Shown here: positions 1 to 23,455 of the stretch, piece by piece | Position numbering within the stretch: the first letter of the stretch is position 1 | Layout: every line of letters starts with the position of its first letter | Assembly: GCA_048884785.1 (NCBI GenBank) | Contig: JBHLQM010000011.1 | Location: forward strand, 30,473 to 64,493 | Direction of reading: 5' to 3' | Source of the DNA: Candidatus Thorarchaeota archaeon | GTDB lineage: Archaea; Asgardarchaeota; Thorarchaeia; Thorarchaeales; Thorarchaeaceae | Length of the DNA: 34,021 nucleotides | The notes under the pieces: model-generated | Told to the model about the DNA's origin: nothing | The model's database searches: none | Seen by the model: the letters and a program-made list of their open reading frames with translations, nothing else | Translations under genes and position numbers: made by a program

Positions 1-792
1 TGGGATATTGCATATCGCCTATGGTTATCCCTGATGACTACACTGAATGCAGCCTGGAGATCCATTGGTCTTGCTAGAGCTGCAAGGGGTAGAAGAGGAC
101 TGGAATACACTGCATATTCAGAAGTTCGCACTCTAAGATCCTTAGACCTAATGAATCTTTATTGGGCAGGCACTGCTATTCTTCTAGTCCCTATAGCTTC
201 ATCATCATTTTTCCTCTCGCTTGGAATTGTGGGATTTCTTGCCGCAATTCTCGGACTATCGCTCATCAGTATAATGGCAATGGAGCTTGTACCCTGGTTT
301 CCGCCAGATGTTGAAAGCGTTCTTTTTAATGAGAAATTTGCCTATGTTTCCCTCTATAGTAGAAACGAACCTCACACTACACCTGTGATTTTTGGATACG
401 ATGGGAAGTATCTCTATTTCGCGATTAGCTTCAAATCAGCAAAATACCGGCTGATGAAACAAAACAATAGAATTGCACTACTTGTTGATATGAGAGATAG
501 AAACAATGTAATGAACAATAGGACTGTTCTCATGAGGGGAAAGGGATTGCTGTTGGGAGAACTAACGCCCATAGGCATTCTTCGTATGTTTGTCCATGGT
601 CTCTGGATGATCAAAGTTAGAATGCTATTCGCTACGAAATATCCTAAATATATGCGGTACTACAAGGATATGGCAGACACGATTCCGCCAGCTTGGCAGA
701 GTACGCCATTACTTTCACGTGTTCTTGTTAGACTGGAGCCCGAACAAATAACATATTGGAGAGAGGCAAGACCAACTTCGCTGAGGGTATAA
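1..792 (+). CDS. 5'-truncated membrane protein with C-terminal PNPOx-like (FMN/F420 split-barrel) domain
   Basis: Frame is open from base 1 (WDIAYRLWLSLM...), so the gene starts upstream of the window. Hydrophobic helices precede FAYVSLYSRNEPHTTPVIFGYDGKYLYF...SAKYRLMKQNNRIALLVD, a typical PNPOx/PPOX pattern. Confidence 0.75.
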   Translation, partial: WDIAYRLWLSLMTTLNAAWRSIGLARAARGRRGLEYTAYSEVRTLRSLDLMNLYWAGTAILLVPIASSSFFLSLGIVGFLAAILGLSLISIMAMELVPWFPPDVESVLFNEKFAYVSLYSRNEPHTTPVIFGYDGKYLYFAISFKSAKYRLMKQNNRIALLVDMRDRNNVMNNRTVLMRGKGLLLGELTPIGILRMFVHGLWMIKVRMLFATKYPKYMRYYKDMADTIPPAWQSTPLLSRVLVRLEPEQITYWREARPTSLRV

Positions 793-793
793 A

Positions 794-1339
794 ATGAAAT
801 CTGAACTAACAATTCAATTGAAGGATCAAAGGCCAGTTCCAAGAGCTGCAATGAAGCTTCTCGAGCATCAATTCTTCGCATACCTAAGTACAGTAGAGGC
901 AGGTTCCAATCCTCACATTACAACTATGTTCTATGTCTGGGATGAAGCACGCCTTCGAATCTACATGATCACAGGAGAGAATAGCACAAAAGCCCAAAAC
1001 ATAAGGAAAAACAATCGAGTGGCTGTAACAGTTGATGAACGTGATCCCAATTCCCCTGCAGGCAACTGTGGTGTTCTCATACGCGGCAGGGCAAATCTAA
1101 TTGATGTCGAGGAGGTTGGTGATGTTATCATGAACAAATACTGGAGCAAGTATCTGAAATTTCTTGGAACAGGATTCCCGATGGGATCTAGGGTATTCAT
1201 CGAAGTTATACCCCGTGTGATTCACTACTGGAAAGGCATTCATTTCTTCAAATGGTACAATCCGGATTATGAGAAACCACTGTACAAATTTAGCCAGGTG
1301 GTCTCGTCAATTTCCGGAAGTAGTAAAGTGCAATCATAA
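794..1339 (+). CDS. Pyridoxamine 5'-phosphate oxidase-like (split-barrel flavin/F420-binding) protein
   Basis: AYLSTVEAGSNPHITTMFYVWD...STKAQNIRKNNRVAVTVD...GVLIRGRA; starts 1 nt after the upstream stop. Confidence 0.85.
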   Translation: MKSELTIQLKDQRPVPRAAMKLLEHQFFAYLSTVEAGSNPHITTMFYVWDEARLRIYMITGENSTKAQNIRKNNRVAVTVDERDPNSPAGNCGVLIRGRANLIDVEEVGDVIMNKYWSKYLKFLGTGFPMGSRVFIEVIPRVIHYWKGIHFFKWYNPDYEKPLYKFSQVVSSISGSSKVQS

Positions 1340-2357
1340 GCATCAGAAATCCAACTGCAAGTGTAATGCTGTGTTCAGTGTACTGAACAAAAGTGGGAAG
1401 AATGTATCCAACAGTCATGTAGAGACCCACAAGAAGGTGCATTAGAACTGTTGCAACATTGGCTGGTACGAGTTGGTTGGGATTGTCAAATGCGCGAAGA
1501 GTTGTTCTGATTCCCACATAGCCCAAAGGCAGCAAAGTTAGAACCAGCAGTGTTTCGAAAGGAATGATGTTCAGAATAGCAAAAACTGGATTCCAAATGA
1601 AAATGGTAGCAATGAGAGCTGTATATCCCTTTGCAGCCTTTGAACGGCCAATTCTCACTACAATTGTTCTCTTTCCAGAATCTCGATCTGCATTGAAATC
1701 CGCAAATTCGTTGATGTACAAGACACCAGCAATGAGAAGTGCTATTGGCACTGATGCCACCACAGGCTCCCAAACAAAATCAAGAGCTTGCACATAGTAT
1801 GCACCAAATGTCATGAGCACCCCAAAATTCAGTCCGATGAATACTTCTCCAATTCCACGCTTCACAAAGCTAAATGGCGGTGCAGTATAGAAGAATCCAG
1901 AACCTGCGCCGATAACTCCTAGAACCAATATGAATAAGTCTCGAGTCATTGCCAAGTAGACGCCAATTGCTCCAGCAATAGCGAAGAAAATCATTGATTC
2001 AGCAAGAACTTCCCGCGGTGAAAGATACCCGAGCTGAATCATTCTACTACCTCCCGTAAAAGGCCGAATGAATTCTACGTTTATATCATCACTACCAGAC
2101 AGCTCAGCTGAGTGATCGAAAAAGTCGTTTGAAACATTCGCTCCAATATGAAGACACACTCCTGCTATCAAGGTAAGCAAAAACACATCAAGAAGCAGAA
2201 TTCCGCGTGTGGCCCATGCGATGGCTGTTCCAAGAAGGACAGGCACTATCGATGCCGTTAGGAAGGGAGCTCGAATCTCAAGGAAAAACGCTCTCAATTT
2301 GCTTGGCTTTTCAGAAGGGGCACTGATTTCTGTCATACTATATCTCTCAGGGGTCAT
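1290..2357 (-). CDS. menA: 1,4-dihydroxy-2-naphthoate polyprenyltransferase (MenA/UBIAD1 branch of UbiA family)
   Basis: RAPFLTASIVPVLLG, NVSNDFFD, GGSR, YTAPPF..KRGIGE, INEFADFNADRDSGKRT; ~9-10 TM helices; SD TAGGAG upstream. Confidence 0.88.
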   Translation of the reverse strand: MTPERYSMTEISAPSEKPSKLRAFFLEIRAPFLTASIVPVLLGTAIAWATRGILLLDVFLLTLIAGVCLHIGANVSNDFFDHSAELSGSDDINVEFIRPFTGGSRMIQLGYLSPREVLAESMIFFAIAGAIGVYLAMTRDLFILVLGVIGAGSGFFYTAPPFSFVKRGIGEVFIGLNFGVLMTFGAYYVQALDFVWEPVVASVPIALLIAGVLYINEFADFNADRDSGKRTIVVRIGRSKAAKGYTALIATIFIWNPVFAILNIIPFETLLVLTLLPLGYVGIRTTLRAFDNPNQLVPANVATVLMHLLVGLYMTVGYILPTFVQYTEHSITLAVGFLMLMIALYYFRKLTRPPG

Positions 2358-2453
2358 TGTCGACTCCTAAAAACTATTACTCATTGTCAGAATGGCTTAA
2401 ATGGGAAAGAGATTTTGAGAGAATGGACATGCATTCGATAGGAGTCATAACAG
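2358..2453. promoter_or_regulatory. Divergent promoter region between menA and the polyprenyl synthase, with mirror-image SD sites
   Basis: GACTCCTA at 2362-2369 and TAGGAGTC at 2439-2446 give the same SD 8-mer for each gene; TATA-like CTTAAAT near 2396. Confidence 0.5.
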
Positions 2454-3512
2454 GTGCCTGAAAGAGATAGCGTCACTACAGAAGGGAAAGAACTCGCTGT
2501 TTACAGTCGAAGTACTTCCCCCAATGGCGAGATTTCGTTTCTGAATGACCTGTCGGAGAGCCTTGTTATTAAAGAACGACTGCGGCTCATTGATGATGAG
2601 ATTGAAAGGGCTTTGGGAAGCGCCGAAGGAGAGCCAAAGATACTGTATGAAACAGCGGCACATCTTCTCAGGGCAGGCGGCAAAAGACTTCGCTCATTGC
2701 TTGTGATTCTATCATGTGAAGCAGTAGGAGGCAATGCGGAGGATGCCATACCTTTTGCCGTTGCCACTGAATTCGCACAGACTGCGAGTTTGATTCATGA
2801 TGATGTAATTGATGAGGATTCGCTTAGGCGTGGAGTGCAATCAACCCATGAGAAATTCGGTCAGAAAATGGCAATACTCGCTGGAGATTTACTTGTTGCT
2901 CAAGCAATACGAATGATAGGAAAACATGCCACTCCTGAAATTATCATTGAGGTAGCGAATGGGGCAATCCGCATGTGCGAAGGAGAAGCTGCGGATATGC
3001 AAATCCAAGCAAATAATCCTGAAGGAATGACAAAGGATAGCTACCTCGATATGATTGAGAAAAAGACTGTTTCATTTTTCAGAACAGCCACAAACATGGG
3101 TGCCACAGTAGGAAAGGGATCTCCATCACAATGCAAGGCACTGAAGGAATATGGTGAGAATCTTGGATATGCATTCCAGATTCGAGATGACATTCTGAAT
3201 GTTATATCCTCCAAGACAATAACCGGGAAATCAGTACACTCAGACCTCCTGTCACAGAGATGCAGCTATGCTCTCGTTCATGCATTGGATTCATGTTCTG
3301 AAGATGAGAGGTCTGAATGTTTGCGATTACTATCACAAGGTGACACTGCATATGCCCTTGAATTGATACACAAGACAAATGCAATCCCCTATGCAATAGA
3401 GCTAGCTCGTGAATATGTGGCAAAATCAAAACTAGCTCTGGTTGGACAGGAATTTCTGAATGAACCTCTGCTTCTGCAAATTGCAGACTTCGTACTACAG
3501 AGACTGCATTGA
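2454..3512 (+). CDS. trans-polyprenyl diphosphate synthase, probably long-chain type
   Basis: GGKRLR, FARM ASLIHDDVIDEDSLRRG, AILAGD, KT, SARM FQIRDDILN; GTG start after the SD. Confidence 0.92.
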   Translation: MPERDSVTTEGKELAVYSRSTSPNGEISFLNDLSESLVIKERLRLIDDEIERALGSAEGEPKILYETAAHLLRAGGKRLRSLLVILSCEAVGGNAEDAIPFAVATEFAQTASLIHDDVIDEDSLRRGVQSTHEKFGQKMAILAGDLLVAQAIRMIGKHATPEIIIEVANGAIRMCEGEAADMQIQANNPEGMTKDSYLDMIEKKTVSFFRTATNMGATVGKGSPSQCKALKEYGENLGYAFQIRDDILNVISSKTITGKSVHSDLLSQRCSYALVHALDSCSEDERSECLRLLSQGDTAYALELIHKTNAIPYAIELAREYVAKSKLALVGQEFLNEPLLLQIADFVLQRLH

Positions 3513-3646
3513 CCAGGCGACATATTATTTCAAATGTTAACCTAATTCATGCTATTGGCTTCATAATATGACCAATCTCACTAAGTGGTTTCTGACTAAG
3601 TTTTCCGATATGCTCATATAGGGTATAGTTAGTTGCAAATCGTAAC

Positions 3647-3702
3647 TTCCAGTGAGATGTTCGAGAGGAGGATTAATAGTCTTCCTGAACATATTATTGG
3701 AA
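3647..3702 (+). promoter_or_regulatory. Long 5'-leader hairpin upstream of the FAD-oxidase operon
   Basis: TTCCAGTGA-G-ATGTTC-GAG-AGGAGGATT-aat-AGTCTTCCT-GAACAT-A-TTATTGGAA gives 24 pairs including G-U; ends 15 nt before ATG 3718. Confidence 0.5.
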
Positions 3703-3717
3703 AATCACTCTGCAAGG

Positions 3718-5454
3718 ATGGCTATCATGATCACACGCAAAGAGTTGCAAGAGCTTGCAGACATAGTCGGAGAAGACTATTTCTCAGCAGAATCTTTTAT
3801 GAAAGAGCTCTATTCCAGCGATATTGCAGCTCTACCAGGACTTGTAAATGACCTGCTGCAAACCAGAGCAGATGCGATTGCTCAACCAATAACATCTGAG
3901 ATTGTATCTAATGTGCTCAAGTACTGCAGCAGCAAAGGTATTCCGGTCATACCCCGGGGGCATGGGACATCAGGATATGGCGGCGCGCTGCCTACTAGGA
4001 ATGGTCTAGTTCTGGAAATGACACGTATGAATCAAATCTACAACATTGACAGAGAGAACATGACTGTTGAGGTGGGCGCCGGAATAATCTGGGGAACCCT
4101 GCTCGAGGCTCTCGAGGATGAAGGCCTATCTCTTGCGGCTTATCCATCAAGCGCCCCATCTAGCACAGTCGGCGGCTGGGTTGCGGCTGGTGGAACCGGA
4201 ATTGGCAGCACTAAATACGGAGGGATTTCAAATCAAATTGTTGACCTCGAAGTAGTGCTACCGAATGGCATGATAATTCGTACAAAGGATGGAGGAAAAC
4301 ACCTCGCCCAAGCTTTGAGAAAGCCAGATTACACCTATTATCCTGGTTCTGAGAAGTATCTCTTTGCTCCTCCGGATTTCAATGAATTCGAGGATGACGT
4401 TTCGCATCTATTTGTAGATAGCAACGGCACATTGGGGGTGGTGACAAAAGTCGTTCTAAAGCTAATACCACTACAAAACATCCGGCCCATGGTTGCATCA
4501 TTCAGAAGCAGAAGACTCATGATAAACGCACTGAAAGATATTCTAGAAGCTACAAGGCCTTTCTATTTACACTTCATTACAAATGAATTCTTTCGCATGA
4601 TGAAAGAGGTCGGTAAGGCACCAGCAACAGCCGGCGATTGGGTCATCCTGAGCACCTACGAGGGGTCTGAGGACGAGGTATCAGCAGAGGTAGAGAAGTT
4701 TCACCATTTTGTGAAACGTCATAATGGTGTGATTGAATCAGATGAGCTTGCCCATCATGAATGGGGAGAAAGATTCTATCCCTTGAGGATTAAGAGACTG
4801 GGCCCAAGTCTTGCACCTTCAGAAGTCTATGTTCCTCTAGATAATCTTCAGGACTTTCTAACTGATATTGATGATCATTTCAAAGATGAAAAATATGCCA
4901 TAGAAGGAGCTATTACCATTAATGGTGAAGTGGCAGCTCTAGCATGGTTTCTTGATGATGAGCGTAAGAAAATATCATTCTTAATGGGCTGGTATAGGTC
5001 GCTTGATTTCATAGATATTGGGATAAAGAATGGCGGCCGCGCCTATAGCATAGGCTTGTGGAATGTTCCGCATTCTCGTTCATACTATGGAAGAGAACGG
5101 CTTGGAAAGATGTCTGATCTGAAGCGATATACTGATCCTAAGAGGAGTGTCAATCCGAATAAAGTGTTCTCAGGATCGCTGAATCTCTCCCTCAGATTCA
5201 ATCTGCTTATTATGTTTGCAGTTTCGATTGCACTTCCAATCATCTTAGTTCTAGCTGGGCTTTGGTTCCCAAGCATAATCAATTATTATGTACCGTGGAT
5301 AGTTCCTGTCACGGTCTTTGATTTCATTATTGCCTTTTGGGCAGGGATGTGTTTAGGATATGTCTTGGTTGAGATTGTGAATGTAATCCCTGTCGGATTT
5401 GTACTATCCATTGGTGGACCTTTCATGAGGTTATTTAGACGAATATGGCATTGA
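3718..5454 (+). CDS. FAD-binding oxidoreductase (PCMH/GlcD-Dld-like fold) with C-terminal transmembrane extension
   Basis: IPRGHGTSGYGG, VEVGAGIIW, PSSAPSSTVGGW, VVLPNG, SNGTLGVVTK, DPKRSVNPNK, then ~85 hydrophobic residues. Start placed at ATG 3718 (or 3727), not 3652. Confidence 0.85.
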   Translation: MAIMITRKELQELADIVGEDYFSAESFMKELYSSDIAALPGLVNDLLQTRADAIAQPITSEIVSNVLKYCSSKGIPVIPRGHGTSGYGGALPTRNGLVLEMTRMNQIYNIDRENMTVEVGAGIIWGTLLEALEDEGLSLAAYPSSAPSSTVGGWVAAGGTGIGSTKYGGISNQIVDLEVVLPNGMIIRTKDGGKHLAQALRKPDYTYYPGSEKYLFAPPDFNEFEDDVSHLFVDSNGTLGVVTKVVLKLIPLQNIRPMVASFRSRRLMINALKDILEATRPFYLHFITNEFFRMMKEVGKAPATAGDWVILSTYEGSEDEVSAEVEKFHHFVKRHNGVIESDELAHHEWGERFYPLRIKRLGPSLAPSEVYVPLDNLQDFLTDIDDHFKDEKYAIEGAITINGEVAALAWFLDDERKKISFLMGWYRSLDFIDIGIKNGGRAYSIGLWNVPHSRSYYGRERLGKMSDLKRYTDPKRSVNPNKVFSGSLNLSLRFNLLIMFAVSIALPIILVLAGLWFPSIINYYVPWIVPVTVFDFIIAFWAGMCLGYVLVEIVNVIPVGFVLSIGGPFMRLFRRIWH

Positions 5455-5478
5455 GCAAAACATAGGTGAGTAAAGAAT

Positions 5479-5868
5479 ATGCAACTAATACCCAATTTCC
5501 ATATGACTATCATCTTAGGACTTCCGGCTATCATCCTATTGGCCATAGGGACTCTATTGTATCAAATATCAAAAGAGAAGTATACATTTGCACATGGCAT
5601 ATGTGCAGGGCTATCTCTGCTACTTACCACGGTCAATATCATTGGAATAATTCCAACAACTGGTGTAGTTCTTGGTGCAGGAGCTGCAGATCTGTTCCAT
5701 TTCTTGCATATTATTATTGGAACGATTGGCTACATCTTTGGAATCATTGCATTTCTTACGGGCATTTCAGGAGTACGGACAAAAATACCGGGTCTCATTG
5801 CTCTTATCTCATGGACTACCGTCTTTGTGATGGGAGTGGCAATTTATGGTATTCAGGTCTTGATTTAG
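5479..5868 (+). CDS. Small 4-TM membrane protein with intramembrane His residues (cytochrome b561/DUF420-like)
   Basis: SD AGGTGAG upstream; four hydrophobic helices; His8, His39, His74, His77; fills the gap between the two FAD-oxidase genes. Confidence 0.75.
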   Translation: MQLIPNFHMTIILGLPAIILLAIGTLLYQISKEKYTFAHGICAGLSLLLTTVNIIGIIPTTGVVLGAGAADLFHFLHIIIGTIGYIFGIIAFLTGISGVRTKIPGLIALISWTTVFVMGVAIYGIQVLI

Positions 5869-5879
5869 GAGGAATAATA

Positions 5880-7358
5880 ATGAATCAAGTAATTCAAGAT
5901 GTCAAAGACCTATCAGAACTGCCTTGGGTTAGCTCAAGCATGACAGAAAGGCTCTCAGCAAGTGGCGATACTACAGGTATTCCATACTACCACTACAGAT
6001 GGAAGAAGAAATGGTTGGCGGATTATGTTGCTTGGCCTACGAGTGCAGAGCAAGTTTCAATGATTCTCAAATTTGCATCAAAGAAGAACATTCCTGTTGT
6101 CCCAAGAGGAGGTGGAACATGCTACTATGGTTCTGCGAGTCCAACTCGAGGCGGCATTATTCTTGACACCAAAGCCCTAGATGCGATTCTCAGGATAAAT
6201 GAGGAGGAGCTGTGGGTAGATGTCCAATCAGGAATAGTATGGGAGGTTTTGGATAGGAAGCTTGAACGAAAGGGCCTATCATTAAAAGTGACTCCACAGA
6301 GCGCACCTGCTTCAACCTTGGGAGGATGGCTTTCAATCGGTGGGAAGGCAGGTATTGGGACACCTAAGTTTGGCACAATGCTAGATAATATTCAGGAGAT
6401 GACGGTTGTTCGTCCCAACGGAACTATCGAAGTTGTGACAGGAGAGAAGATGAAACCATTCTTTGGCACTAGCGGGATAGCAGGCGTAGTGGTTTCAATG
6501 AAACTAAAGATTCGACGCAAGCCTGAAAGAATTGATGGCGTTATGTATGCCTTCGAAACAGTGGAAAAGGCATGTGAGGCCTCTAGATGGATAGGTGAAT
6601 CTAGTCTAAAGCCAGTGTATTTGAGAATCACTGACCTTGAATATGAATGGCGAATTCAGGGAGGCCTTCCGCCGCATCCGAAGAATGGCTGCTTTGTGCT
6701 AGTAACATATGATGGAGCAAACGAGGAAGTAGAACAGGGTATAAAACTGGCGCGGAGCGTGCTTGAGTCTTCAGGTGGCTTCGATGTGGGCAAAAGCTTC
6801 TACGAAAAGAACTGGGAAGACAGATTCATCATTGAAATGAAATTGAAGCTGGAAGTACCAACGCTCTCCATGCAGAATTTCCTGATTGAACCGAGTAAGG
6901 TATCAATACTCACCAAGAAGATGTACAGTATAGCAAAGAAGTACAGAATAAATTCCTGTTTCTACGCAGTTTTAGGAGCCAACACAAAATTCCGTTTCTG
7001 CGCATTTGCGCCTTCAGACCATAGGCATTGGATGCATTTCATGTCTGGAAAATCAATGCTTCATCACTTGGTGAAGGAGGCATATAGGAATGGAGCAAAG
7101 CTCTATACACTTGGTCTACAGAACACGGTATATCTGAAGAAATACCAGCCAGAAGATTACAAGTTGTATAGACAACTTAGAGATGAATGGGATCCTCAAA
7201 AACTAATGAATCCTGACAAGCTCACTAATGCCAATATGACATACAGAAGATTGAATCTAATGTTCTCCATGAATGGTCGCATTAGACGATTGATGGCGAT
7301 TTTTAGAATTGCAAAGAATATACTTCAAGTTCCTGAGTGGGTCAAGGAGGAAAAATAA
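5880..7358 (+). CDS. Second FAD-binding oxidoreductase (GlcD/Dld-like fold)
   Basis: SD AGGAGG precedes ATG 5880; VPRGGGTCYYG, VQSGIVW, PQSAPASTLGGW, GTSGIAGVVV, DPQKLMNPDK. The track's start at 5466 is an over-extension. Confidence 0.85.
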   Translation: MNQVIQDVKDLSELPWVSSSMTERLSASGDTTGIPYYHYRWKKKWLADYVAWPTSAEQVSMILKFASKKNIPVVPRGGGTCYYGSASPTRGGIILDTKALDAILRINEEELWVDVQSGIVWEVLDRKLERKGLSLKVTPQSAPASTLGGWLSIGGKAGIGTPKFGTMLDNIQEMTVVRPNGTIEVVTGEKMKPFFGTSGIAGVVVSMKLKIRRKPERIDGVMYAFETVEKACEASRWIGESSLKPVYLRITDLEYEWRIQGGLPPHPKNGCFVLVTYDGANEEVEQGIKLARSVLESSGGFDVGKSFYEKNWEDRFIIEMKLKLEVPTLSMQNFLIEPSKVSILTKKMYSIAKKYRINSCFYAVLGANTKFRFCAFAPSDHRHWMHFMSGKSMLHHLVKEAYRNGAKLYTLGLQNTVYLKKYQPEDYKLYRQLRDEWDPQKLMNPDKLTNANMTYRRLNLMFSMNGRIRRLMAIFRIAKNILQVPEWVKEEK

Positions 7359-7361
7359 GAA

Positions 7362-8579
7362 ATGCGACGTTTCTTTACAAGTGAATTTGACTTCGATCCT
7401 GATAAGATAGTATTGTGCAGCAACTGCTCAACCTGCAGATGGACTTGCACAAGTTATGAGGAATTTGGCACTGAAGCCATGTTCGCAGGCGGCCGGCTTC
7501 GCCTTCTGAGGTCTTATGTTGAACGAAATCTTTCGGTCGATGATGATTTTGTCAAAGCTGTATATGCCTGCTCAACATGTGAACAGTGTGTTGAGAGATG
7601 TCCAATAAAAGTCCCGTATGTGGATATCATTGAGGATTTGCGCAAGAGACTCGTCCAGATTGGCAAGGGACCTTATGGCAAGCTAGGTGCTCTTGGAGAC
7701 CGAGTGTTCAGCATCCATAATCCATTTGATGGAAACCCCAACGAACGAGCGGCCTGGGTTACACCCGAGCTGAGAGTATCTGAGGATTCTGAATGGGGGT
7801 ATTTTGTAGGATGTACAGCATCATTTAGACGACAAGAAATTGCTGTGGCAACAGTAAAAATGCTCAATCACTTTGGAATCGAACCTCAGATTCTTGGTTC
7901 TGAGGAATATTGTTGTTGTAGCCCACTTATACGTACTGGGCAAGTAAAAAGACCAATCTACAAGAAGAAAGAGGACGGTACTAAGGAGTATCAAGGCGAG
8001 CTTGATGTTGATAAGAAGATAAATCACAATATAGAAGAGTTCAAGACCAGAGGTGTCAAACATCTAATCTATTCCTGTTCTGGATGCTATCGTACAACAA
8101 CGCTGGATTGGCCAAAATACTATCGTGAGCGTGGCGGGATACTACCTTTCTCCACGCAGCACCTCTCCCAGTTCTTAGCACTGAAAGCAAAGAAAGGAGA
8201 ACTGAATTGGAAAAAGCCGTATAATGAACGTGTCACATATCACGACCCATGTCACTTGGGCAGACACGTGGGAATAATGGATGCACCCAGAGAGGTCATA
8301 AGGAGCATCCCTGGTGTTGAACTGGTCGAGATGGAGAGAAACAGGCTCAACTCCAAATGCTGCGGCGCTGGAGGCGGCTTTAAGGCTGGATTTGGAGATA
8401 ATGCAACGAATGTTGCATCACGGAGAATTGAAGAAGCACTTGAGGCTGGCGCGACCACACTGATATCATCCTGCGTCTTCTGCAAGCTCAATTTCCTTGA
8501 TGCTGTCAAAGCCCACGACTATAAGATCAAAATAAAAAATATTGAAGACATATTCATTGAACTGATGGATCTGGGCTAG
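7362..8579 (+). CDS. Fe-S oxidoreductase with 2x[4Fe-4S] motifs and two CCG domains (GlcF/GlpC/HdrD-like)
   Basis: CSNCSTCRWTC, CSTCEQCVERCP, YFVGC, CCCS, SCSGC, TYHDPCHLGR, CCGAGGG, SCVFC. Confidence 0.9.
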   Translation: MRRFFTSEFDFDPDKIVLCSNCSTCRWTCTSYEEFGTEAMFAGGRLRLLRSYVERNLSVDDDFVKAVYACSTCEQCVERCPIKVPYVDIIEDLRKRLVQIGKGPYGKLGALGDRVFSIHNPFDGNPNERAAWVTPELRVSEDSEWGYFVGCTASFRRQEIAVATVKMLNHFGIEPQILGSEEYCCCSPLIRTGQVKRPIYKKKEDGTKEYQGELDVDKKINHNIEEFKTRGVKHLIYSCSGCYRTTTLDWPKYYRERGGILPFSTQHLSQFLALKAKKGELNWKKPYNERVTYHDPCHLGRHVGIMDAPREVIRSIPGVELVEMERNRLNSKCCGAGGGFKAGFGDNATNVASRRIEEALEAGATTLISSCVFCKLNFLDAVKAHDYKIKIKNIEDIFIELMDLG

Positions 8580-8611
8580 AAGGAACTTCAATGCACAAGG
8601 CCAGTTGATAG

Positions 8612-9805
8612 TTAAAGGGTCTCAAAAAGCCTGGAAACAACTGGAGAGAGGAACGATATAGGACGGGGTATGCGGCATCGGATAACATCCTCCAAATACC
8701 TCGAACCACTCAGTCGCATTGCTACTTCGGTGAACGCGTCTGTCATCATCATCACATCAGCAACTCGAAGAATACCAAGAGCCCTGTATAGTTCGCTCCC
8801 AAATTCCTCCTTCCATCTGTCTTCATAGGACGAAAGCGAACTGCCATCAGATAGATGTTCAGCTGCAGTATATCCTGCAATCTCACCTCCAGCCATTGCC
8901 GTAGGGATTCCACCTCCATTCGAAGCCATTACATGCCCAGCTGCATCTCCAGCTAGGAGAACTCCATCTCGGGAGGTTTGCTTCTTTGGTCCTCCAACAG
9001 GAATACTCGCACCAACGGTTCCAACAATCTTTGCATTTGCGGCATGTTTAGAGATAATTGGATCCTTGCGAATCAAGTATTTCAGGAATGAATGAAGGTT
9101 CAAATCAGGCGACATATACCTGCGTCTCAGTCCAAAACCAAGATTTGCAGAAGAGGACGATGTCGGAATCATCCATGCATACCCCCCAGGAGCTGCACGA
9201 TGTCCGAAGAGCATCAGCGGATACGTGGGGTCGAAATCAACTCCTTTCAGGAAGTATTGAAGAGACTGGCTCATATCTCTGAACTCATTCGGATAGGCGG
9301 AACCAATTGAGTTAGCAATTATTGACCTAGGGCCGTCTGCACCAATTACTACTCTAGCTCTGAATTCCTTCATGCCTGTGGGTGTTCTGATCCTGAGTAT
9401 ATTCCCGACAGCTCGATTGAGCACGCGCGACTCCAACATTAGACTTGCCCCGGCATCAACAGCAGAATTGGTTAAGAATTGGTCAAACCGTGCCCTGTCC
9501 ACGATGTTGGATTCAAGCTTGAATTGATATTCTCTCCACTTTGGAGAGATCAAAGACATATGCGTTGTCCTGTTTTGAATCAGGTCCTTAGGGACGTTGG
9601 TCAATCGCAGCACCCTCTTGCACCTGGGAAACATATCTCTTTGCTCTCGAGGGGTAGGAAGATACTCTCCGCATTGAATTGGAACGCCCACCTGCCTTCT
9701 TCTCTCAACAAGGAGTGTACTGAATCCATGCTCAGCAACAACCCTTGCGGCATTACTGCCTGCTGGACCAGCTCCAACTACAATCACGTCGAAAGAAGAC
9801 TGCAC
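8612..9805 (-). CDS. Geranylgeranyl reductase family flavoprotein
   Basis: DVIVVGAGPAG, CGE, DRARFD, VIGADG, PGGYAWMIP, LAGDAAG...GGGI. Confidence 0.9.
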   Translation of the reverse strand: MQSSFDVIVVGAGPAGSNAARVVAEHGFSTLLVERRRQVGVPIQCGEYLPTPREQRDMFPRCKRVLRLTNVPKDLIQNRTTHMSLISPKWREYQFKLESNIVDRARFDQFLTNSAVDAGASLMLESRVLNRAVGNILRIRTPTGMKEFRARVVIGADGPRSIIANSIGSAYPNEFRDMSQSLQYFLKGVDFDPTYPLMLFGHRAAPGGYAWMIPTSSSSANLGFGLRRRYMSPDLNLHSFLKYLIRKDPIISKHAANAKIVGTVGASIPVGGPKKQTSRDGVLLAGDAAGHVMASNGGGIPTAMAGGEIAGYTAAEHLSDGSSLSSYEDRWKEEFGSELYRALGILRVADVMMMTDAFTEVAMRLSGSRYLEDVIRCRIPRPISFLSPVVSRLFETL

Positions 9806-10165: not shown

Positions 10166-12763
10166 ATGAAGAAGCAGACACCCATGCAGCGGCAATATCT
10201 CGAATTAAAGAGGCAGTATCCTAATTGTATATTGATGTTTAGGCTTGGGGACTTCTATGAGATGTTCAATGAGGACGCTAAAGTAGCAAGTGAAGTACTG
10301 GACATAGTGCTTACTTCTCGAGGTGAGGGTGTGGATAAATGGGCTATGTGCGGGGTGCCCTACCATGCAGTCGATGGCTATGTTGCAAAGTTGCTTCATT
10401 CTGGATTAACCGTGGCAATAGCGGATCAGGTCGAAGAAGCCTCCCAAGCAAAAGGACTCGTTAAACGTGATGTGGTTAGAGTCATAACACCTGGCACTGT
10501 GCTAGAGTCAAACATGCTTGAGGATACTTCAAACAATTACCTCATGTCGCTTGTTGAACACGACAGCGTTGTTGGAATTGCTGCAGTTGATGTTTCCACT
10601 GGGGAGTTCATGTCAACAGAGATTGCTGGAAGAATTACAGATGATGCCATGATAAACGAGGTCTCAAGACTGAATCCCGCTGAAGTTCTTCTCCCGGATT
10701 CCTTGCGGAAGAGAGAAGATATCAAATCTCTCATAGAAGGCACTGGAGCATATATCACATATTGGCGCGACGTTGAATTCTCTGCACGCTCAGGAGAGGA
10801 GAAGCTCAAGGAGCAACTAGGTGTTGCAACCTTGGACGGCTTTGGTCTTTCTGATAAACGGGTTGCTATAGGAGCCGCAGGAGCCGTTCTGTCCTATGTT
10901 AAGGAGATGCACAAAGGAAATCCTCTGACGATATCCAGTCTCAGAGCCTACATAACGGACCGACATATGACCATTGACGCAGCAACTCAGCGGAATTTAG
11001 AGTTAGTAAAGAACGCCAGGGACGGTAGTACGAGAGGAACACTCTTTGAAGTCCTTTCTAGTACTGTAACGCCAATGGGAAAACGCAAGCTCAAACAGTG
11101 GATGCTGCAGCCCTTGCAAGACATCTCAGAGATTGAAAAACGTCTAGAGGCAGTTGACGAGCTGGCACGTACGGCAATGACTCGGAAGAATGTCAGCTCA
11201 AGTATGCGTAATCTTGGAGACCTTGAGCGTATCACCAGTCGCATTGTTTTTGGAACTGGTGGTGCTAGAGACCTCGTTGCACTCAGACTCGCTCTTGGCA
11301 AGGTACCTGGAATCAAGAAGGCTGTGAAGAACTGCGATTCGTCTCTCTTGAAGGAGGTGAATGATTCCATTGATCCCTTAACCAAGCTACATGATACCCT
11401 GAAGGATGCCATTGTTGAAGACCCTCCAATTTCAGTAAAAGAGGGCAAGATGATTCGGGAAGGATTCGACCAAGAATTGGATAAACTGAAAGGAGGAATA
11501 AGTGGCGACAAGAAATGGATTGCTTCACTTCAGTCAAGAGAGCGCATGCGAACTGGAATCAAATCTTTGAGAGTCGGTTACAACAAAGTCTTTGGATATT
11601 ACATTGAAGTCACGAAGGCCAATCTTTCATCTATACCCGATGACTATGAGAGGAAGCAGACACTTGCCAATGCAGAGCGTTTCATCACTCCAGAACTAAA
11701 AGAGAAAGAGGCTGCTGTTCTTGCCGGTGAAGACAGAATTAGCAAGATGGAGTATGAGATTTACGAAAGACTACGGTCACAGGTTCAAGAGTGTATTGAT
11801 AAGCTACGCGAGAATTCAGCATCCATCGCAGTGTTAGACGTAATCTCTTCATTGGCAGAAGTCGCAGTAACAAGGAAATATACACGTCCCAAGTTGACGA
11901 AAGGCAGTAGAATTCGCATAATAGATGGTCGACATCCCTCATTGGAAATGATGCTTGGTTCGAATGAATTCGTGCCAAATAGTCTAGATATCGGAGATGG
12001 AGATACTTCGTTAATTATTGTCACAGGGCCGAATATGGCTGGTAAGAGCACATACATGCGTCAGACCGCACTCATTGTACTTCTTGCTCAAATGGGCTCC
12101 TTTGTCCCTGCGAAAACAGCAGACATTGGAATCGTTGATAGAATTTTCACCAGGGTGGGAGCATTTGATGATCTAACTGCAGGGCAGAGCACATTCATGG
12201 TGGAGATGATTGAAACTGCCAACATCTTGAATAACGCGACAGAGAGAAGTCTCGTTATTCTAGATGAGATAGGTAGAGGGACCTCAACATTTGATGGCAT
12301 GGCAATTGCCTGGGCAGTTGCAGAAAAAATCGCACAGATGAAGACACGCACCTTATTCGCTACTCACTTTCATCAGCTCACAGATATGGCGAACATCTAC
12401 CATGGCGTGAAGAATGTTCACACTCTTGCGAGAGAAACAGGAGACACAATTGTCTTTCTTCACAAAGTTGTTGATGGTGGAACAGATCGATCCTATGGGG
12501 TTCATGTAGCAGCTTTAGCAGGAGTCCCTGAACAAGTCGTCAATAGAGCCAAGGAAATGCTAACGCAGCTTGAAACCCATAATTCTGTTAACTTGGAGGG
12601 TTCAGCTGATGGTGCAACTGAAAAGCTACAAACAAGTCTTGAAGCATTGACCATTGATGACCCAATTGTAGAGCAAATCAAGCATTTGGATCTCGATAGG
12701 ATAACTCCTCTGGCCGCGTTGTTGCGTCTGAAAGAGCTTCAAGATGAGGCAAAGAAGAGATAG
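10166..12763 (+). CDS. mutS: DNA mismatch repair protein MutS (MutS1 type)
   Basis: TPMQRQY, FRLGDFYEMF mismatch-recognition motif, TPGT, TGPNMAGKST, STFMVEM, DEIGRGTST, FATHF, SYGVHVA. Confidence 0.97.
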   Translation: MKKQTPMQRQYLELKRQYPNCILMFRLGDFYEMFNEDAKVASEVLDIVLTSRGEGVDKWAMCGVPYHAVDGYVAKLLHSGLTVAIADQVEEASQAKGLVKRDVVRVITPGTVLESNMLEDTSNNYLMSLVEHDSVVGIAAVDVSTGEFMSTEIAGRITDDAMINEVSRLNPAEVLLPDSLRKREDIKSLIEGTGAYITYWRDVEFSARSGEEKLKEQLGVATLDGFGLSDKRVAIGAAGAVLSYVKEMHKGNPLTISSLRAYITDRHMTIDAATQRNLELVKNARDGSTRGTLFEVLSSTVTPMGKRKLKQWMLQPLQDISEIEKRLEAVDELARTAMTRKNVSSSMRNLGDLERITSRIVFGTGGARDLVALRLALGKVPGIKKAVKNCDSSLLKEVNDSIDPLTKLHDTLKDAIVEDPPISVKEGKMIREGFDQELDKLKGGISGDKKWIASLQSRERMRTGIKSLRVGYNKVFGYYIEVTKANLSSIPDDYERKQTLANAERFITPELKEKEAAVLAGEDRISKMEYEIYERLRSQVQECIDKLRENSASIAVLDVISSLAEVAVTRKYTRPKLTKGSRIRIIDGRHPSLEMMLGSNEFVPNSLDIGDGDTSLIIVTGPNMAGKSTYMRQTALIVLLAQMGSFVPAKTADIGIVDRIFTRVGAFDDLTAGQSTFMVEMIETANILNNATERSLVILDEIGRGTSTFDGMAIAWAVAEKIAQMKTRTLFATHFHQLTDMANIYHGVKNVHTLARETGDTIVFLHKVVDGGTDRSYGVHVAALAGVPEQVVNRAKEMLTQLETHNSVNLEGSADGATEKLQTSLEALTIDDPIVEQIKHLDLDRITPLAALLRLKELQDEAKKR

Positions 12764-12801: not shown

Positions 12802-13662
12802 TCATTTGAACGACGGCATTACATCTTTAGCAAATTTGGTGATTGTTTCAATCCCGCTTGAATCACGAGGCAGCGAAACCAGATAATATGAATCGCCCGC
12901 GTCTTTTGCTGATTCAACGGCTTTCATGAATTCTCCAGCTTCAGTTATCCTCTGCCCCATCATACCTCCGGTCATGAAACTGATCTTGTTCTCGCGATTT
13001 GCCTTCTTGGCGGCTTGAATTACTGTTTCTCTTGCCTCAGCTGGATTATATTCGCCGAAGGGTGGAAGGTAGATGATATCGCCATATGTTCCAGACAATT
13101 GAAGCATCCGCTTTCCACGACTGCCAAAGAGGAGAGGAGGATATGGCTTCTGTACTGGTTTTGGCTCCAGCACTGCATCTTTTGCCTTGTAGAAAGTGCC
13201 GTTGAAATTGACCTTGTCTTTAATCCACAACGCCAACATCAGTTCGAGGCCTTCGATTGTCTTATCAACGCGAGTCTTTGAATTTGCCCATTCGCTATAG
13301 CCTTCAAACTCAGCCTGAGACCATCCGGCTCCAATACCTGCGATCACGCGACCGTTTGACAGAACATCAACTGTGGAGATCATTTTGGCGAGAAGTCCAG
13401 GAGGTCTGAATGGCACAGGAGTCACCATTGTACCGAGGCGAATCCTTTCAGTTTTTGCAGCAAGATAAGACAGAGTGATCCAAGACTCCATGGTCACATT
13501 GGAGTCCGGTCTGGACATCATTCTGCTACTCATATCACCCCACATGTAATGGTCTGGCATGACCGCTCCGTAATAACCCAGTCTGTCAGCCTCAATAATG
13601 GCGTTCTTTACAAGTTCGTATTCCTTGTGCCAATTTCCAAGGCCACCTAACATGAATTTCAA
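12802..13662 (-). CDS. LLM-class (luciferase-like) flavin/F420-dependent oxidoreductase
   Basis: PDH, LAAKTERIRLGTMVT, LAKMISTVDVLSNGR, GIGAGW, PKPVQKPYPPL; TTG start after SD GGGTGAT. Confidence 0.9.
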   Translation of the reverse strand: MKFMLGGLGNWHKEYELVKNAIIEADRLGYYGAVMPDHYMWGDMSSRMMSRPDSNVTMESWITLSYLAAKTERIRLGTMVTPVPFRPPGLLAKMISTVDVLSNGRVIAGIGAGWSQAEFEGYSEWANSKTRVDKTIEGLELMLALWIKDKVNFNGTFYKAKDAVLEPKPVQKPYPPLLFGSRGKRMLQLSGTYGDIIYLPPFGEYNPAEARETVIQAAKKANRENKISFMTGGMMGQRITEAGEFMKAVESAKDAGDSYYLVSLPRDSSGIETITKFAKDVMPSFK

Positions 13663-14115: not shown

Positions 14116-14189
14116 AGAACATCAAGAAGAAGTCAGAACCGATAGAATAAGGTAATAGTGGGTTTCATTATCTAGAAATGAAGACTCGT
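14116..14189 (+). repeat. Diverged direct repeat, copy 2 (74 bp)
   Basis: Aligns without gaps to 13750-13823. Confidence 0.8.
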
Positions 14190-14240
14190 GAAGCAACAGA
14201 ATCAGATTGGGAGGATATCAGAAAACTAGGTGATATTGTC

Positions 14241-15833
14241 TTGAAGAAGTACCGTCTCATTCTAGAACCATCAGGGCAGAGAATCCTGATTCCAGGAGGA
14301 ACATGCTTTCTCAATGCCATTAGAGAGAGCGGTTCTTATATCCCTTCAGAATGTGGCGGCAAAGGAACGTGTGGAAAATGCAAAATAATGGTCACCCCCA
14401 TTCCCAAAGCGGCAGGCGATGATGAGCGCCACATTCCTACTGAGGAGCTTAATCGTGGAATTCGCTTGGCGTGTCAACATAGTATTGAAGCCGATTCGCG
14501 AGTTATGACTATGAGTATTTTTGCAGATGCAAGAATCTTGACTGAAGGCAAACCGACAGAAGATGAGTTACTCGTCGATGAGAGCGCAAAAGGAGAGTAT
14601 GGTGCAGCTATCGATATTGGGACGACTACAATAGTTGTATACCTTATGGACCTAGAAACTGGACAGCAAGTTGCATCGGCTGCAGGATTGAACCCCCAAG
14701 TTTCAATCGGTGAAGACGTAATCACACGTATTGGAAACGCCTCTGAAAGCCTCTTGAATCGCAGGAATCTTCAGCTAATGGTTGTAGAAGATATCGATCG
14801 ACTCTTGGCAGGGCTTCTCTCCCAACTGAAAATCAGTCCTTCTAGTGTTGCCAAACTCTCGGTTGTTGGAAACACTGCAATGCACCACTTATTCCTTGGT
14901 CTTGATACATCAAACCTAGGTGTAGTACCATATACTCCAGCTAATACGGATGCGCAATTGGTAGAAGCAAGAGATTTGGGTTTGAAGGTTGTGGATGGCC
15001 AGGTATACTGCGGGCCGCTCATTGCAGGGTTTGTTGGCAGCGATATTACAGCCCTTATCATTTCGCAGCATCTGAATGAAACACATGAAACTGTACTTGC
15101 CATTGACCTTGGCACCAACGGTGAACTAGTATTATCAAAGGCCGGGGAACTCTATGCCTGTTCTACGGCGGCAGGATCTGCATTTGAGGGCGCAACAATA
15201 TCCCAAGGAATGCGGGGACAGACTGGAGCAATAGAACATATCTCACTAGTGAACAAGAACAGCGCACCAGAGATAACTGTGATCGGCCACGTTGCTCCTA
15301 AAGGACTCTGCGGCTCAGCAATCGTGGACATCGTATCTGAGCTAAGAAGAGTGAATCTTGTTTCACCGGATGGAAAACTATCTGAGTCAAAAAGGACCAC
15401 ACGAGATGGAAAGGAAGCTCTTGGATACATCGTTGTGGATAGTGATGAACACGGAGCGGATGAGAGGATCATATTCACTCAAAAAGACATTAGACAAGTG
15501 CAGTTGGCTAAAGCGGCTATAGCAGCTGGTGCAAGAATTCTGATGATGACTGCAAATATTGAAGCAAAGGACCTTGATAGAGTTTTGCTGGCAGGTGCTT
15601 TCGGAAACTATATTGATCCCAACTCAGCATTAAACATCGGACTAATACCAAGAGTCCCTCGAAACCACGTATATCAGGTGGGAAACACCGCAGGAATCGG
15701 TGCAAAGATGATGTTACTATCCTCAGTGAAGCGCAAGGCTGCTGAAACAATAGTTGGTTCTGTAAGATATATCGAACTTGCAGGACGCAAAGACTTCCAG
15801 AAATCGTTCATTGATTCAACAAGTCTGAATTGA
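14241..15833 (+). CDS. ASKHA/DUF4445 protein with N-terminal 2Fe-2S domain (reductive activator of corrinoid enzymes, RACo/AcsV-like)
   Basis: CGGKGTCGKC..RLAC, AIDIGTTT, GNTAMHHL, DLGTNGE, STAAGSAFEG, GLCGS, DIRQVQLAKAAI, LAGAFG. TTG 14241 follows SD GGTGAT; the ORF is open back to ATG 14178. Confidence 0.9.
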   Translation: MKKYRLILEPSGQRILIPGGTCFLNAIRESGSYIPSECGGKGTCGKCKIMVTPIPKAAGDDERHIPTEELNRGIRLACQHSIEADSRVMTMSIFADARILTEGKPTEDELLVDESAKGEYGAAIDIGTTTIVVYLMDLETGQQVASAAGLNPQVSIGEDVITRIGNASESLLNRRNLQLMVVEDIDRLLAGLLSQLKISPSSVAKLSVVGNTAMHHLFLGLDTSNLGVVPYTPANTDAQLVEARDLGLKVVDGQVYCGPLIAGFVGSDITALIISQHLNETHETVLAIDLGTNGELVLSKAGELYACSTAAGSAFEGATISQGMRGQTGAIEHISLVNKNSAPEITVIGHVAPKGLCGSAIVDIVSELRRVNLVSPDGKLSESKRTTRDGKEALGYIVVDSDEHGADERIIFTQKDIRQVQLAKAAIAAGARILMMTANIEAKDLDRVLLAGAFGNYIDPNSALNIGLIPRVPRNHVYQVGNTAGIGAKMMLLSSVKRKAAETIVGSVRYIELAGRKDFQKSFIDSTSLN

Positions 15834-21658: not shown

Positions 21659-23455
21659 ATGGGAAAAATCCGTGTCCTTGATGAAGCTTTAGTGTCGCTC
21701 ATATCAGCAGGCGAAGTCATAGAGAACCCCTCTTCAGTTGTAAAGGAATTAATCGAGAACTCCCTTGATGCAAACGCGACAAATATTGAGATTCAGATTC
21801 AGAAGGGAGGTATTGATTCCGTCACAGTATCAGATAATGGTGAAGGAATTCTGAAGGAAGACTGCCTAGTATGTACTCTACGGCATTCGACCAGCAAGAT
21901 ATCTTCTCGAGATGATATCGATTCGATTCTTACATATGGCTTCAGGGGGGAAGCCCTCGCAAGTATAGCGGCAGTGGCCAACCTTGAGATTGTCACTCGT
22001 CATGGAAAAGAGGAAATTGGTACCAGAATAAAGTCAGCAGCCGGCCAAATCCCAACACTTTCTGATGCATCACGCCCGCAGGGCACCAAAGTTGAAGTTA
22101 CTGAGCTCTTTAGGAATATTCCTGCTCGGAAAAAACATCTCTCTGATCCACGCGTAGAGAGCCAACGAGTTCTTGATTCTATAATGAGACATGCTATTAT
22201 CCGGAATGACATTGGATTCCGGTTCTCCAGAGATGGTAAAGTCATGCTCGATTGCCCGAGTGGTCAAAGCGCATCAGATAGAGTGCTTTCGGTATGGGGC
22301 TCGGATATCGCAAGTCGTTTGATAGAAATAAGTCAGAAGAAGAAAGGAATCACGATTTCAGGATTCATTGCAGAACCTTCAATGTCGAGAGGGAATCGTG
22401 GTAGAGAGCTATTCTCAGTAAGGAAGCGGCCTATAGAAGACCAATTACTCAGCCAGACTGTAGAGAATGCATATTCAACACTTCTCATGAAAGGTAGGTA
22501 TCCAATCTTTGCTATTGATATTGACATGGATGTAGCAAAGGTTGATGCTAATGTTCATCCAACAAAACGCGAGGTTAGATTACTTGATCTCGAATTGGTT
22601 CGAGAAATACTCAAAGAAGTCATCTCAGAGGCCCTATCTGATTCAACGCCAGCTATTCCACAGGAATCACTTGAAGAACTCGTCGAATCACAGCAACTGA
22701 TTGGAGAAGCAGCTAGTCTCTTTCCAGATGTGACTTCCGCCCGTTCGGAAGGGAGAGCATTGCTCTTAGAAGAAACCAGGTTAGTACAACCCACACCGTC
22801 AGCAACACCCGATGTAGAGATAGAAGAGCTGGGTAGAATCTTCAATATTCTTGGTCAAGTGAATATGCTGTATATTGTTGCCGCAACAGAAAATGGACTT
22901 GTTCTTGTTGACCAGCATGCTGCCCATGAACGAATTCTCTATGAGAAATACAGAAATCAAGTCAACAATGGAACAGTTGTCATTCAGGAATTACTTGAAC
23001 CCATTGTACTCAAGCTTGGTCCTGGTGAAGCAGAGAAGATTTTGGCACTGGATGAAACACTTGAATCACTTGGATACACAATAGGAAGCTTTGGTGGAAA
23101 TGAGGTCCTTGTATCAACACTTCCTGAAATTCTTGGCCAACGAGCATCGGAGGAAGAGCTGATTGCTCTGGTTGACAGGATTTTGGAAATTGGGATTAAG
23201 GATGGATTGGAGCAATTCATGGACGAGCTAGTCAAACTCACTGCATGCCATTCTGCAATTCGTTCCGGACAGATGATTGGCCATGAAATGGCGAAAAGAC
23301 TGATCAATGACCTATTCAAGACTGAAGGAAAATTCCACTGCGCGCATGGTAGACCCACCATTATCAGAATAGATACGAAAGAGCTGAACACAAGATTCGG
23401 AAGAACTGGCGCAGAAGCCATCGAGAGATTTCGTGCAAGGCATAGATTGAGGTAG
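21659..23455 (+). CDS. mutL: DNA mismatch repair endonuclease MutL
   Basis: AGEVIE, KELIENSLDA, DNGEG, GFRGEALAS, DANVHPTKREV, DQHAAHERILYE, ACH, CAHGRPT. Confidence 0.97.
   Translation: MGKIRVLDEALVSLISAGEVIENPSSVVKELIENSLDANATNIEIQIQKGGIDSVTVSDNGEGILKEDCLVCTLRHSTSKISSRDDIDSILTYGFRGEALASIAAVANLEIVTRHGKEEIGTRIKSAAGQIPTLSDASRPQGTKVEVTELFRNIPARKKHLSDPRVESQRVLDSIMRHAIIRNDIGFRFSRDGKVMLDCPSGQSASDRVLSVWGSDIASRLIEISQKKKGITISGFIAEPSMSRGNRGRELFSVRKRPIEDQLLSQTVENAYSTLLMKGRYPIFAIDIDMDVAKVDANVHPTKREVRLLDLELVREILKEVISEALSDSTPAIPQESLEELVESQQLIGEAASLFPDVTSARSEGRALLLEETRLVQPTPSATPDVEIEELGRIFNILGQVNMLYIVAATENGLVLVDQHAAHERILYEKYRNQVNNGTVVIQELLEPIVLKLGPGEAEKILALDETLESLGYTIGSFGGNEVLVSTLPEILGQRASEEELIALVDRILEIGIKDGLEQFMDELVKLTACHSAIRSGQMIGHEMAKRLINDLFKTEGKFHCAHGRPTIIRIDTKELNTRFGRTGAEAIERFRARHRLR

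Follow-up and report, generated by a model that had tools for sequence, protein, structure and literature searches.

A conserved gene kit of menA, polyprenyl synthase and GGR beside a complex I-like operon in Thorarchaeia, and its possible role in menaquinone salvage

Gene content of the locus

We analyzed a 34,021-nucleotide stretch of DNA (the window; C11:30473-64493) from a Candidatus Thorarchaeota archaeon, with a focus on nine genes at its beginning that include those for a MenA-type prenyltransferase, a polyprenyl diphosphate synthase, and a flavoprotein of the geranylgeranyl reductase (GGR) family. The host genome has 3.6 Mb and is 91% complete, and its closest named relative is Ca. Thorarchaeota CSMAG_1925, the MenA of which is 75% identical. 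For comparison, we used 36 relatives of the same family, which together with the host make up a set of 37 Thor genomes, and a set of 61 Asgard genomes. All nine open reading frames (ORFs) that had been named in a first-pass annotation were present, and profile searches assigned them to the same families.

The locus begins with two split-barrel genes on the plus strand. PNP1 (1..792) is the 3' part of a gene for a DUF7530 membrane domain and a split-barrel PNPOx_N domain (the latter at 34-792), and PNP2 (794..1339) encodes a soluble split-barrel PNPOx_N protein of the flavin/F420-binding type. They are followed by menA (1290..2357, minus strand), encoding a UbiA/MenA-type aromatic prenyltransferase with both Asp-rich motifs, and by a divergently oriented gene for a trans-polyprenyl diphosphate synthase (2454..3512, plus strand). 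Four further plus-strand genes encode FAD1 (3652..5454, with the likely start at the ATG at 3727 or just before it), TM4 (5479..5868), FAD2 (5880..7358), and a CCG protein (7362..8579). FAD1 and FAD2 are FAD_binding_4 and FAD-oxidase_C proteins of the VAO/Dld fold that lack the Dld metal site, FAD1 with a C-terminal membrane segment and FAD2 soluble; TM4 is a four-helix membrane protein of 129 residues, and the CCG protein is HdrD/GlpC-like with two [4Fe-4S] motifs and two CCG domains. The GGR gene (8612..9805, minus strand; GG-red-SF) completes the series. A 630-residue ORF at 5466 was discarded as an over-extended version of FAD2 that masks TM4.

The nine genes thus form the contiguous block that had been described, but they are not one transcription unit, as menA and the GGR gene lie on the minus strand, menA overlaps PNP2 tail to tail by 50 bp, and the GGR gene converges on the CCG gene. 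The gaps between FAD1, TM4, FAD2, and the CCG gene are operon-like (24, 11, and 3 bp). The nine genes are three units, namely a kit of menA, synthase, and GGR, a cassette of FAD1, TM4, FAD2, and CCG protein, and the split-barrel pair. That all nine constitute a single conserved module was not borne out when we checked their synteny, as the full order was kept only within part of one genus.

Conservation of the kit and its neighborhood

Synteny among the relatives confirmed menA, synthase, and GGR as a conserved kit. A menA orthologue was found in 31 of the 36 relatives, and the synthase gene adjoins it in 27 of these 31, with three cases undecided at contig ends and one in which the genes lie apart. 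The GGR orthologue occurs in 25 relatives and is located within 8 kb of menA in 20 of them. The kit extends beyond the family: in Hermod-type genomes, the GGR, synthase, and menA genes are co-oriented and adjoin a nuo-like operon, and menA and GGR, in part with the synthase, also stand in the same run as FAD/CCG or oxidase genes in two more Asgard families. At most Thor loci, the kit is followed by a CCG protein, a flavoprotein-NuoB fusion, and the complex I-like pump. In the Hermod-type genomes (L042, L043, and L049), a putative sulfide:quinone-reductase-like gene precedes GGR, synthase, and menA.

The main conserved neighbor of the kit is a complex I-like operon, which the first-pass annotation had overlooked. 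In the host, this operon lies within the 20 kb before the window (L001:918-14203, contig C11) and encodes the subunits A, J, K, C, D, H, and I together with several antiporter-type subunits, the fourth antiporter-type gene being located at C11:9918-11417. NuoEFG are absent from the operon, and NuoB, which scored above the cut-off of the NuoB models, is fused to an FAD-oxidase-type flavoprotein. The NuoD subunit lacks both CxxC pairs of hydrogenases.

The kit and the pump also tend to be present or absent together. The four well-assembled relatives without menA (G009, G017, G024, and G033; 88-98% complete) also lack orthologues of the synthase, GGR, MenG, and NuoD, and all 21 relatives with a menG orthologue carry menA and the NuoD orthologue as well. 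As the genomes without menA are kin and correspond to about two independent losses, we regard this as a pattern and not as a statistic.

A carotenoid-type cluster with desaturases, phytoene synthase, and a putative LyeJ-like UbiA protein was seen at C16:340-6173 of the host (G000) and at L109-L111; in two genera, the synthase gene and menA directly follow such a cluster.

Identity of the kit enzymes

The UbiA-family protein of the window could be assigned to the MenA type, as it reached 105 bits with TIGR00751 (cut-off 102). It contains the Asp-rich motifs NDFFD and NEFADxxxD, and its only match in the PDB was UBIAD1 (8djk). Five UbiA-family genes are present in the genome, and the window gene is the sole MenA-like one. 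In a 44-row tree from which UBIAD1, UbiA, and MqnP were left out, the protein grouped in a weakly supported clade of Asgard and Dehalococcoidia sequences (80/94) beside canonical MenA (82/70) and apart from the four other UbiA proteins of the genome, which sit on long branches.

The synthase has Ala-Ser at positions -5/-4 before the first DDxxD motif, and this was the case in 33 of 33 orthologues read at the motif. Small residues at this site allow chains longer than C20, and the enzyme is thus probably of the long-chain type with a product longer than C20. As a sign of chain length this is weak, because the other synthase of the genome also has small residues (Gly-Ser) at these positions.

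The GGR passed the GG-red-SF model (TIGR02032) with 211 bits at a cut-off of 159. An identity as MenJ, which had been brought up for this protein, was rejected on the basis of its score with the MenJ model NF045655, which was far below the cut-off (66 bits against 700). The PxxYxWxxP catalytic motif of the GGR family is retained, and the protein resembles lipid GGRs (PDB 3oz2, E 5e-33). About 14 GGR-like genes are found in the genome, and that of the window belongs to a clade that travels with menA; it is from this gene neighborhood that we infer a role of the GGR in quinone formation. Contig C102 breaks off within a second copy of the GGR that is linked to menA (45%).

The resemblance of the GGR to lipid GGRs such as 3oz2, its intact catalytic motif, and the carotenoid genes that directly adjoin menA and the synthase gene in Hermodarchaeum as well as in two genera would fit a trio that makes a non-redox membrane isoprenoid, such as a saturated prenylated lipid or a carotenoid-linked product, with the respiratory neighbors being historical. 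We consider such a product very improbable, as the UbiA protein is of the MenA type and not a DGGGP synthase or LyeJ, as the kit co-occurs with menG and the pump, and as the bacterial relatives of this MenA are found in respiratory operons (see below).

Head-group genes

The first-pass annotation had found no ring-synthesis genes in the window, and this held true for the whole genome and for the Thor relatives. MenF, MenD, and MenC of E. coli had no match in the host genome when used as queries, and no chorismate-binding protein was found there. MenD did not exceed its cut-off in any of the 37 Thor genomes. Of the futalosine route, MqnA/D, MqnC, MqnE, and MqnP were not found in the host genome, and MqnA/D was not found in the 61 Asgard genomes. 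Matches to MenB and MenE turned out to be general enoyl-CoA hydratases and acyl-CoA ligases (21-34% identity), and a 371-residue gene between GGR and synthase in several relatives (L034:2629-3744) was rejected as a ring-gene candidate, since it is absent from the host genome and from most loci. MenD passed the cut-off in one Asgard genome of another family; the respective locus (L101 in G051) carries menD, menF, and a canonical-type MenA.

A search of the whole genome for menG, which had been suggested earlier, was successful: the gene is located on contig C66 (183 bits, cut-off 158). As MenA, a chain synthase, and MenG are encoded without ring genes, the host most likely salvages a naphthoquinone head group. 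Judged from its genes, the set is that of a quinone auxotroph. There is a precedent for such a physiology in Lactiplantibacillus plantarum, which converts supplied 1,4-dihydroxy-2-naphthoate (DHNA) to the menaquinones MK-6 and MK-7 and contains no quinone without DHNA (10.1101/2023.03.13.532228).

Split-barrel proteins

A connection between split-barrel proteins and MenA is seen beyond the host. A split barrel is fused to the N terminus of MenA in one of the Thor genomes (G008) and in one genome of the Dehalococcoidia, and a third genome, of an Asgard, gave a weaker match to the fused domain (L066:9477-11015 in G008, L051:9512-11044, and L105:5184-6518). Among the 150 closest 50%-clusters of MenA, 30 contain a split barrel, nearly always fused to the prenyltransferase; among the named hosts are Nitrososphaerales, Endomicrobiia, Albibacterium, Marinimicrobia, and Hodarchaeales. 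The fusion family is thus widespread among both bacteria and archaea. Genes of this subfamily are found directly after nqrDEF-type genes, inside an operon for an NrfD/molybdopterin reductase, at the head of a haem-synthesis operon, and before menG. In Albibacterium, futalosine genes and a separate MqnP are present and MenD is not, so that the fused MenA appears to come in addition to the pathway, as would be expected of a salvage enzyme. These respiratory contexts support a quinone role of the MenA subfamily and a connection of split barrels with the step of MenA. Our searches of largely open-access literature gave no description of the split-barrel::MenA fusion.

PNP2 matches the profile of the fused domain with an E value of 1e-8. 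We nevertheless doubt that PNP1 and PNP2 are no more than a divided version of the fused barrel, as this profile gave higher scores with two other proteins of the genome and G008 carries both the fusion and PNP1/PNP2. The PPOX models stayed below their cut-off, and cofE is present in the genome.

The split-barrel pair belongs to a gene run that begins before the window, where a gene for a surface protein (L001:14452-18444; 1330 residues with one CxxCH motif, long repeats, a Thr-rich stalk, and then a C-terminal membrane anchor) is followed by a CCG gene, PNP1 as the third gene, and PNP2. PNP1 is truncated in the window by a scaffold gap of 100 N (L001:19874-19973) that ends at window base 1 and hides about 450 bases of the gene. 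Its true start lies beyond this gap, about 115 bases before the window, and the stop of the upstream CCG gene is 46 bases before this inferred start. As PNP1 and PNP2 follow the upstream CCG gene wherever both are seen in Thor loci, the pair continues the upstream run. Orthologues of PNP1 have about 417 residues with DUF7530 and PNPOx_N domains and are present in 11 of the 36 relatives. One Asgard of another family also has a split-barrel pair that converges on menA.

These observations bear on the possibility that the product of the kit is another kind of prenylated aromatic carrier, which would be either a non-naphthoquinone or a naphthoquinone from a novel ring pathway, with a split-barrel flavoprotein possibly handling or reducing the head group. 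In its favor, no known ring pathway was found in the 37 Thor genomes, although 32 of them have menA, the MenA belongs to a clade distinct from the canonical enzymes, NuoD has an atypical site, and 30 of the 150 nearest clusters contain the split barrel, almost always in fusion. We nonetheless think that this is rather unlikely, as a menG of the menaquinone/ubiquinone type co-occurs with the kit, as the neighborhood holds no other conserved candidate for a ring gene, and as the relatives of this MenA reside in operons of quinone-using enzymes. A far-reaching form of this idea is that Thorarchaeia respire with a carrier whose head group comes from neither known menaquinone route, being either a new aromatic or a scavenged ring that is first reduced or delivered by the split-barrel flavoprotein to the distinct MenA subfamily, and that this carrier links the flavoprotein-fused complex I-like pump to haem-bearing cassettes. 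We see this as conceivable but doubtful.

The FAD/CCG cassette

The cassette of FAD1, TM4, FAD2, and CCG protein is optional and movable. A full FAD2 orthologue is present in 8 of the 36 relatives, always within the menA island and at varying places. Its position between synthase and GGR is restricted to the host genome and three genomes of the same genus, and it is missing from that place in two others of this genus. On the host contigs C95 and C4, as in relatives, FAD1 follows a CCG gene of its own (CCG'), and TM4, FAD2, and CCG form a separate trio. The four genes therefore look like one and a half cassettes, and FAD1, by this comparison of gene orders, is half of a CCG'-FAD1 pair that lacks CCG' at the window locus.

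The original model had joined the nine genes into one module, with the cassette as a four-subunit dehydrogenase that feeds the quinone made by the adjacent genes. The tight spacing of the four genes agrees with this model, as do the confinement of all eight full FAD2 orthologues to the menA island, the order FAD1-TM4-FAD2-CCG that two additional genera retain on the opposite side of menA, and the invariant His residues of TM4. However, the FAD2 orthologue is missing from 23 of the 31 relatives with menA, including two of the same genus in which the kit is otherwise intact, FAD1 at other loci is preceded by a CCG partner of its own and can lie about 4 kb from TM4, and paralogous cassettes are present in the same genome on C95 and on C4, where they lie beside ccm and cytochrome c genes. 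We therefore regard the single module as improbable.

The paralogous FAD/CCG cassettes are located at L081/L082 (C4:23255-46729), L080 (C95), and L083 (C102). They are accompanied by ccm genes, a seven-CxxCH cytochrome, mono-haem surface proteins, and a TM4 fusion; of these, the ccm genes, the seven-CxxCH cytochrome, and the fusion, which joins a cytochrome to TM4, adjoin the copies on C4.

FAD1 and FAD2 fold like D-lactate dehydrogenases (TM-score of about 0.75 with PDB 7qh2 and 8jde), and they had been taken for dehydrogenases of the GlcD/Dld type. This assignment, and with it a function as lactate or glycolate dehydrogenase, had to be given up, as the His-x6-His and Glu-His residues of the metal/substrate site are absent from FAD1, FAD2, and their paralogues and are replaced in the alignment to LDHD and LctD. 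The cassette is thus predicted not to bind a 2-hydroxy acid as substrate in the canonical manner. Residues W312, R315, K323, D380, and R382 are conserved in FAD2.

TM4 is a candidate haem b anchor, as it is a four-helix bundle in which H39, H74, and H77 are invariant and H8 is near-invariant. The Atlas leads for TM4 were DUF420 (0.88, 19% of members) and b561 (0.80), and fold searches with the TM4 model retrieved nothing beyond generic four-helix bundles and subunit III of cytochrome oxidase (E > 0.3, Z <= 12.5). A complex prediction of the CCG protein and TM4 with haem had a score of 0.00, which is evidence neither way. CCG proteins exchange electrons, in either direction, with membrane carriers or disulfides. 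The nearest solved relative of the CCG protein of the cassette is PDB 9ojn, and the protein remained below the cut-off of every named equivalog.

Further downstream in the window, there are genes for MutS (10166-12763) and MutL (21659-23455), as well as for a luciferase-like oxidoreductase of the F420 type (12802-13662) and a RACo corrinoid activator (14178-15833). MutS borders the GGR gene in many Thor genomes.

Proposed function

We consider it probable, on balance, that the kit serves to complete a menaquinone-like carrier by salvage, and that this carrier is used by the pump and, in genomes that have them, by the cassettes. In this route, the synthase would make a polyprenyl diphosphate, probably longer than C20, and MenA would join this tail to a naphthoquinol head group of the DHNA or menadiol type that is taken from the surroundings. 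MenG (C66) would methylate the prenylated product where needed, and the GGR may saturate the tail partly or fully. The carrier would most likely serve the neighboring complex I-like pump with its NuoB-flavoprotein fusion and without NuoEFG, and in a minority of genomes it would probably also serve the optional flavoprotein/CCG/haem cassettes, such as that at 3652-8579.

Several points weigh against this proposal. MenA passes only one MenA model, and this by 3 bits, with the other MenA models below cut-off; it is 25-32% identical to named MenAs, and it is in a separate clade of weak support (80/94). The absence of ring genes comes from a genome that is 91% complete, the co-loss of kit and pump genes goes back to about two independent lineages, and the NuoD orthologue is missing from six relatives that have menA. 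NuoD also lacks the usual Tyr of the quinone site of complex I. The Gly-Ser at -5/-4 of the other synthase and the adjacency of menA and synthase to carotenoid genes in two genera have to be counted here as well.

Thor-type Asgards are usually pictured as fermenters. According to a recent survey, the switch to menaquinone took place in Heimdallarchaeia, and deeper Asgards are treated there as ferredoxin-based (10.1101/2024.07.04.601786). If the proposed route exists, electron transport at the quinone level would be wider in Asgards, since the kit lies beside the pump in Hermod-type genomes and most Thorarchaeia. Thor cells might then depend on neighbors for a vitamin-K-like ring, and the addition of DHNA or menadione would be a cheap and direct lead for cultivation.

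Comparison with known systems

The closest functional analog is the salvage system of L. plantarum with MenA/DmkA, DmkB, and UbiE (10.1101/2023.03.13.532228), which likewise combines a prenyltransferase, a chain synthase, and a methyltransferase without ring synthesis. The Thor kit differs in being archaeal, in its distinct MenA clade at about 26-28% identity, and in the additional GGR, and it is tied to a complex I-like pump, whereas the L. plantarum system is tied to Ndh2/PplA. UBIAD1, an animal enzyme, prenylates menadione (PMC11119062). With MenA (TIGR00751) and UBIAD1 (PDB 8djk), the Thor MenA has the fold family and the Asp-rich motifs in common, and as in the case of UBIAD1, the host has no ring pathway. 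The Thor MenA differs in its separate clade, which it shares with Dehalococcoidia and other bacteria and whose members are often fused to a split barrel.

The GGR can be compared to MenJ (NF045655) and to AF0648 of Archaeoglobus, which are likewise GGR-family enzymes proposed to saturate quinone tails. AF0648, a menaquinone-specific prenyl reductase, has been reported to lack the GGR catalytic motif (reviewed in PMC10821996), whereas the Thor GGR retains it, and from MenJ the Thor GGR is set apart by its profile score. The cassette resembles GlcDEF, LctD, and LDHD (PDB 7qh2, 8jde) in having two FAD-oxidase paralogues of the same fold and a CCG iron-sulfur protein, and it differs by the replaced His-x6-His and Glu-His residues in both flavoproteins and by the extra four-helix membrane protein.

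Within the Asgards, Sun et al. (2021, PMC9723677) described Dld-HdrD pairs, a complex I without NuoEFG, and a presumed menaquinone in Sif- and Jordarchaeia, and they noted menA and ubiE in some Asgard metagenome-assembled genomes. Sif- and Jordarchaeia share with the Thor genomes many copies of FAD oxidase and HdrD-like pairs and the headless Nuo. The Thor flavoproteins differ in lacking the Dld metal site and in having membrane or His-bearing partners, and neither the menA-synthase-GGR cluster nor its link to the pump is part of that description. A search of largely open-access literature yielded no paper on the Thor kit or its link to the pump. The Thor kit is a real, conserved variant of known parts that is apparently unpublished.

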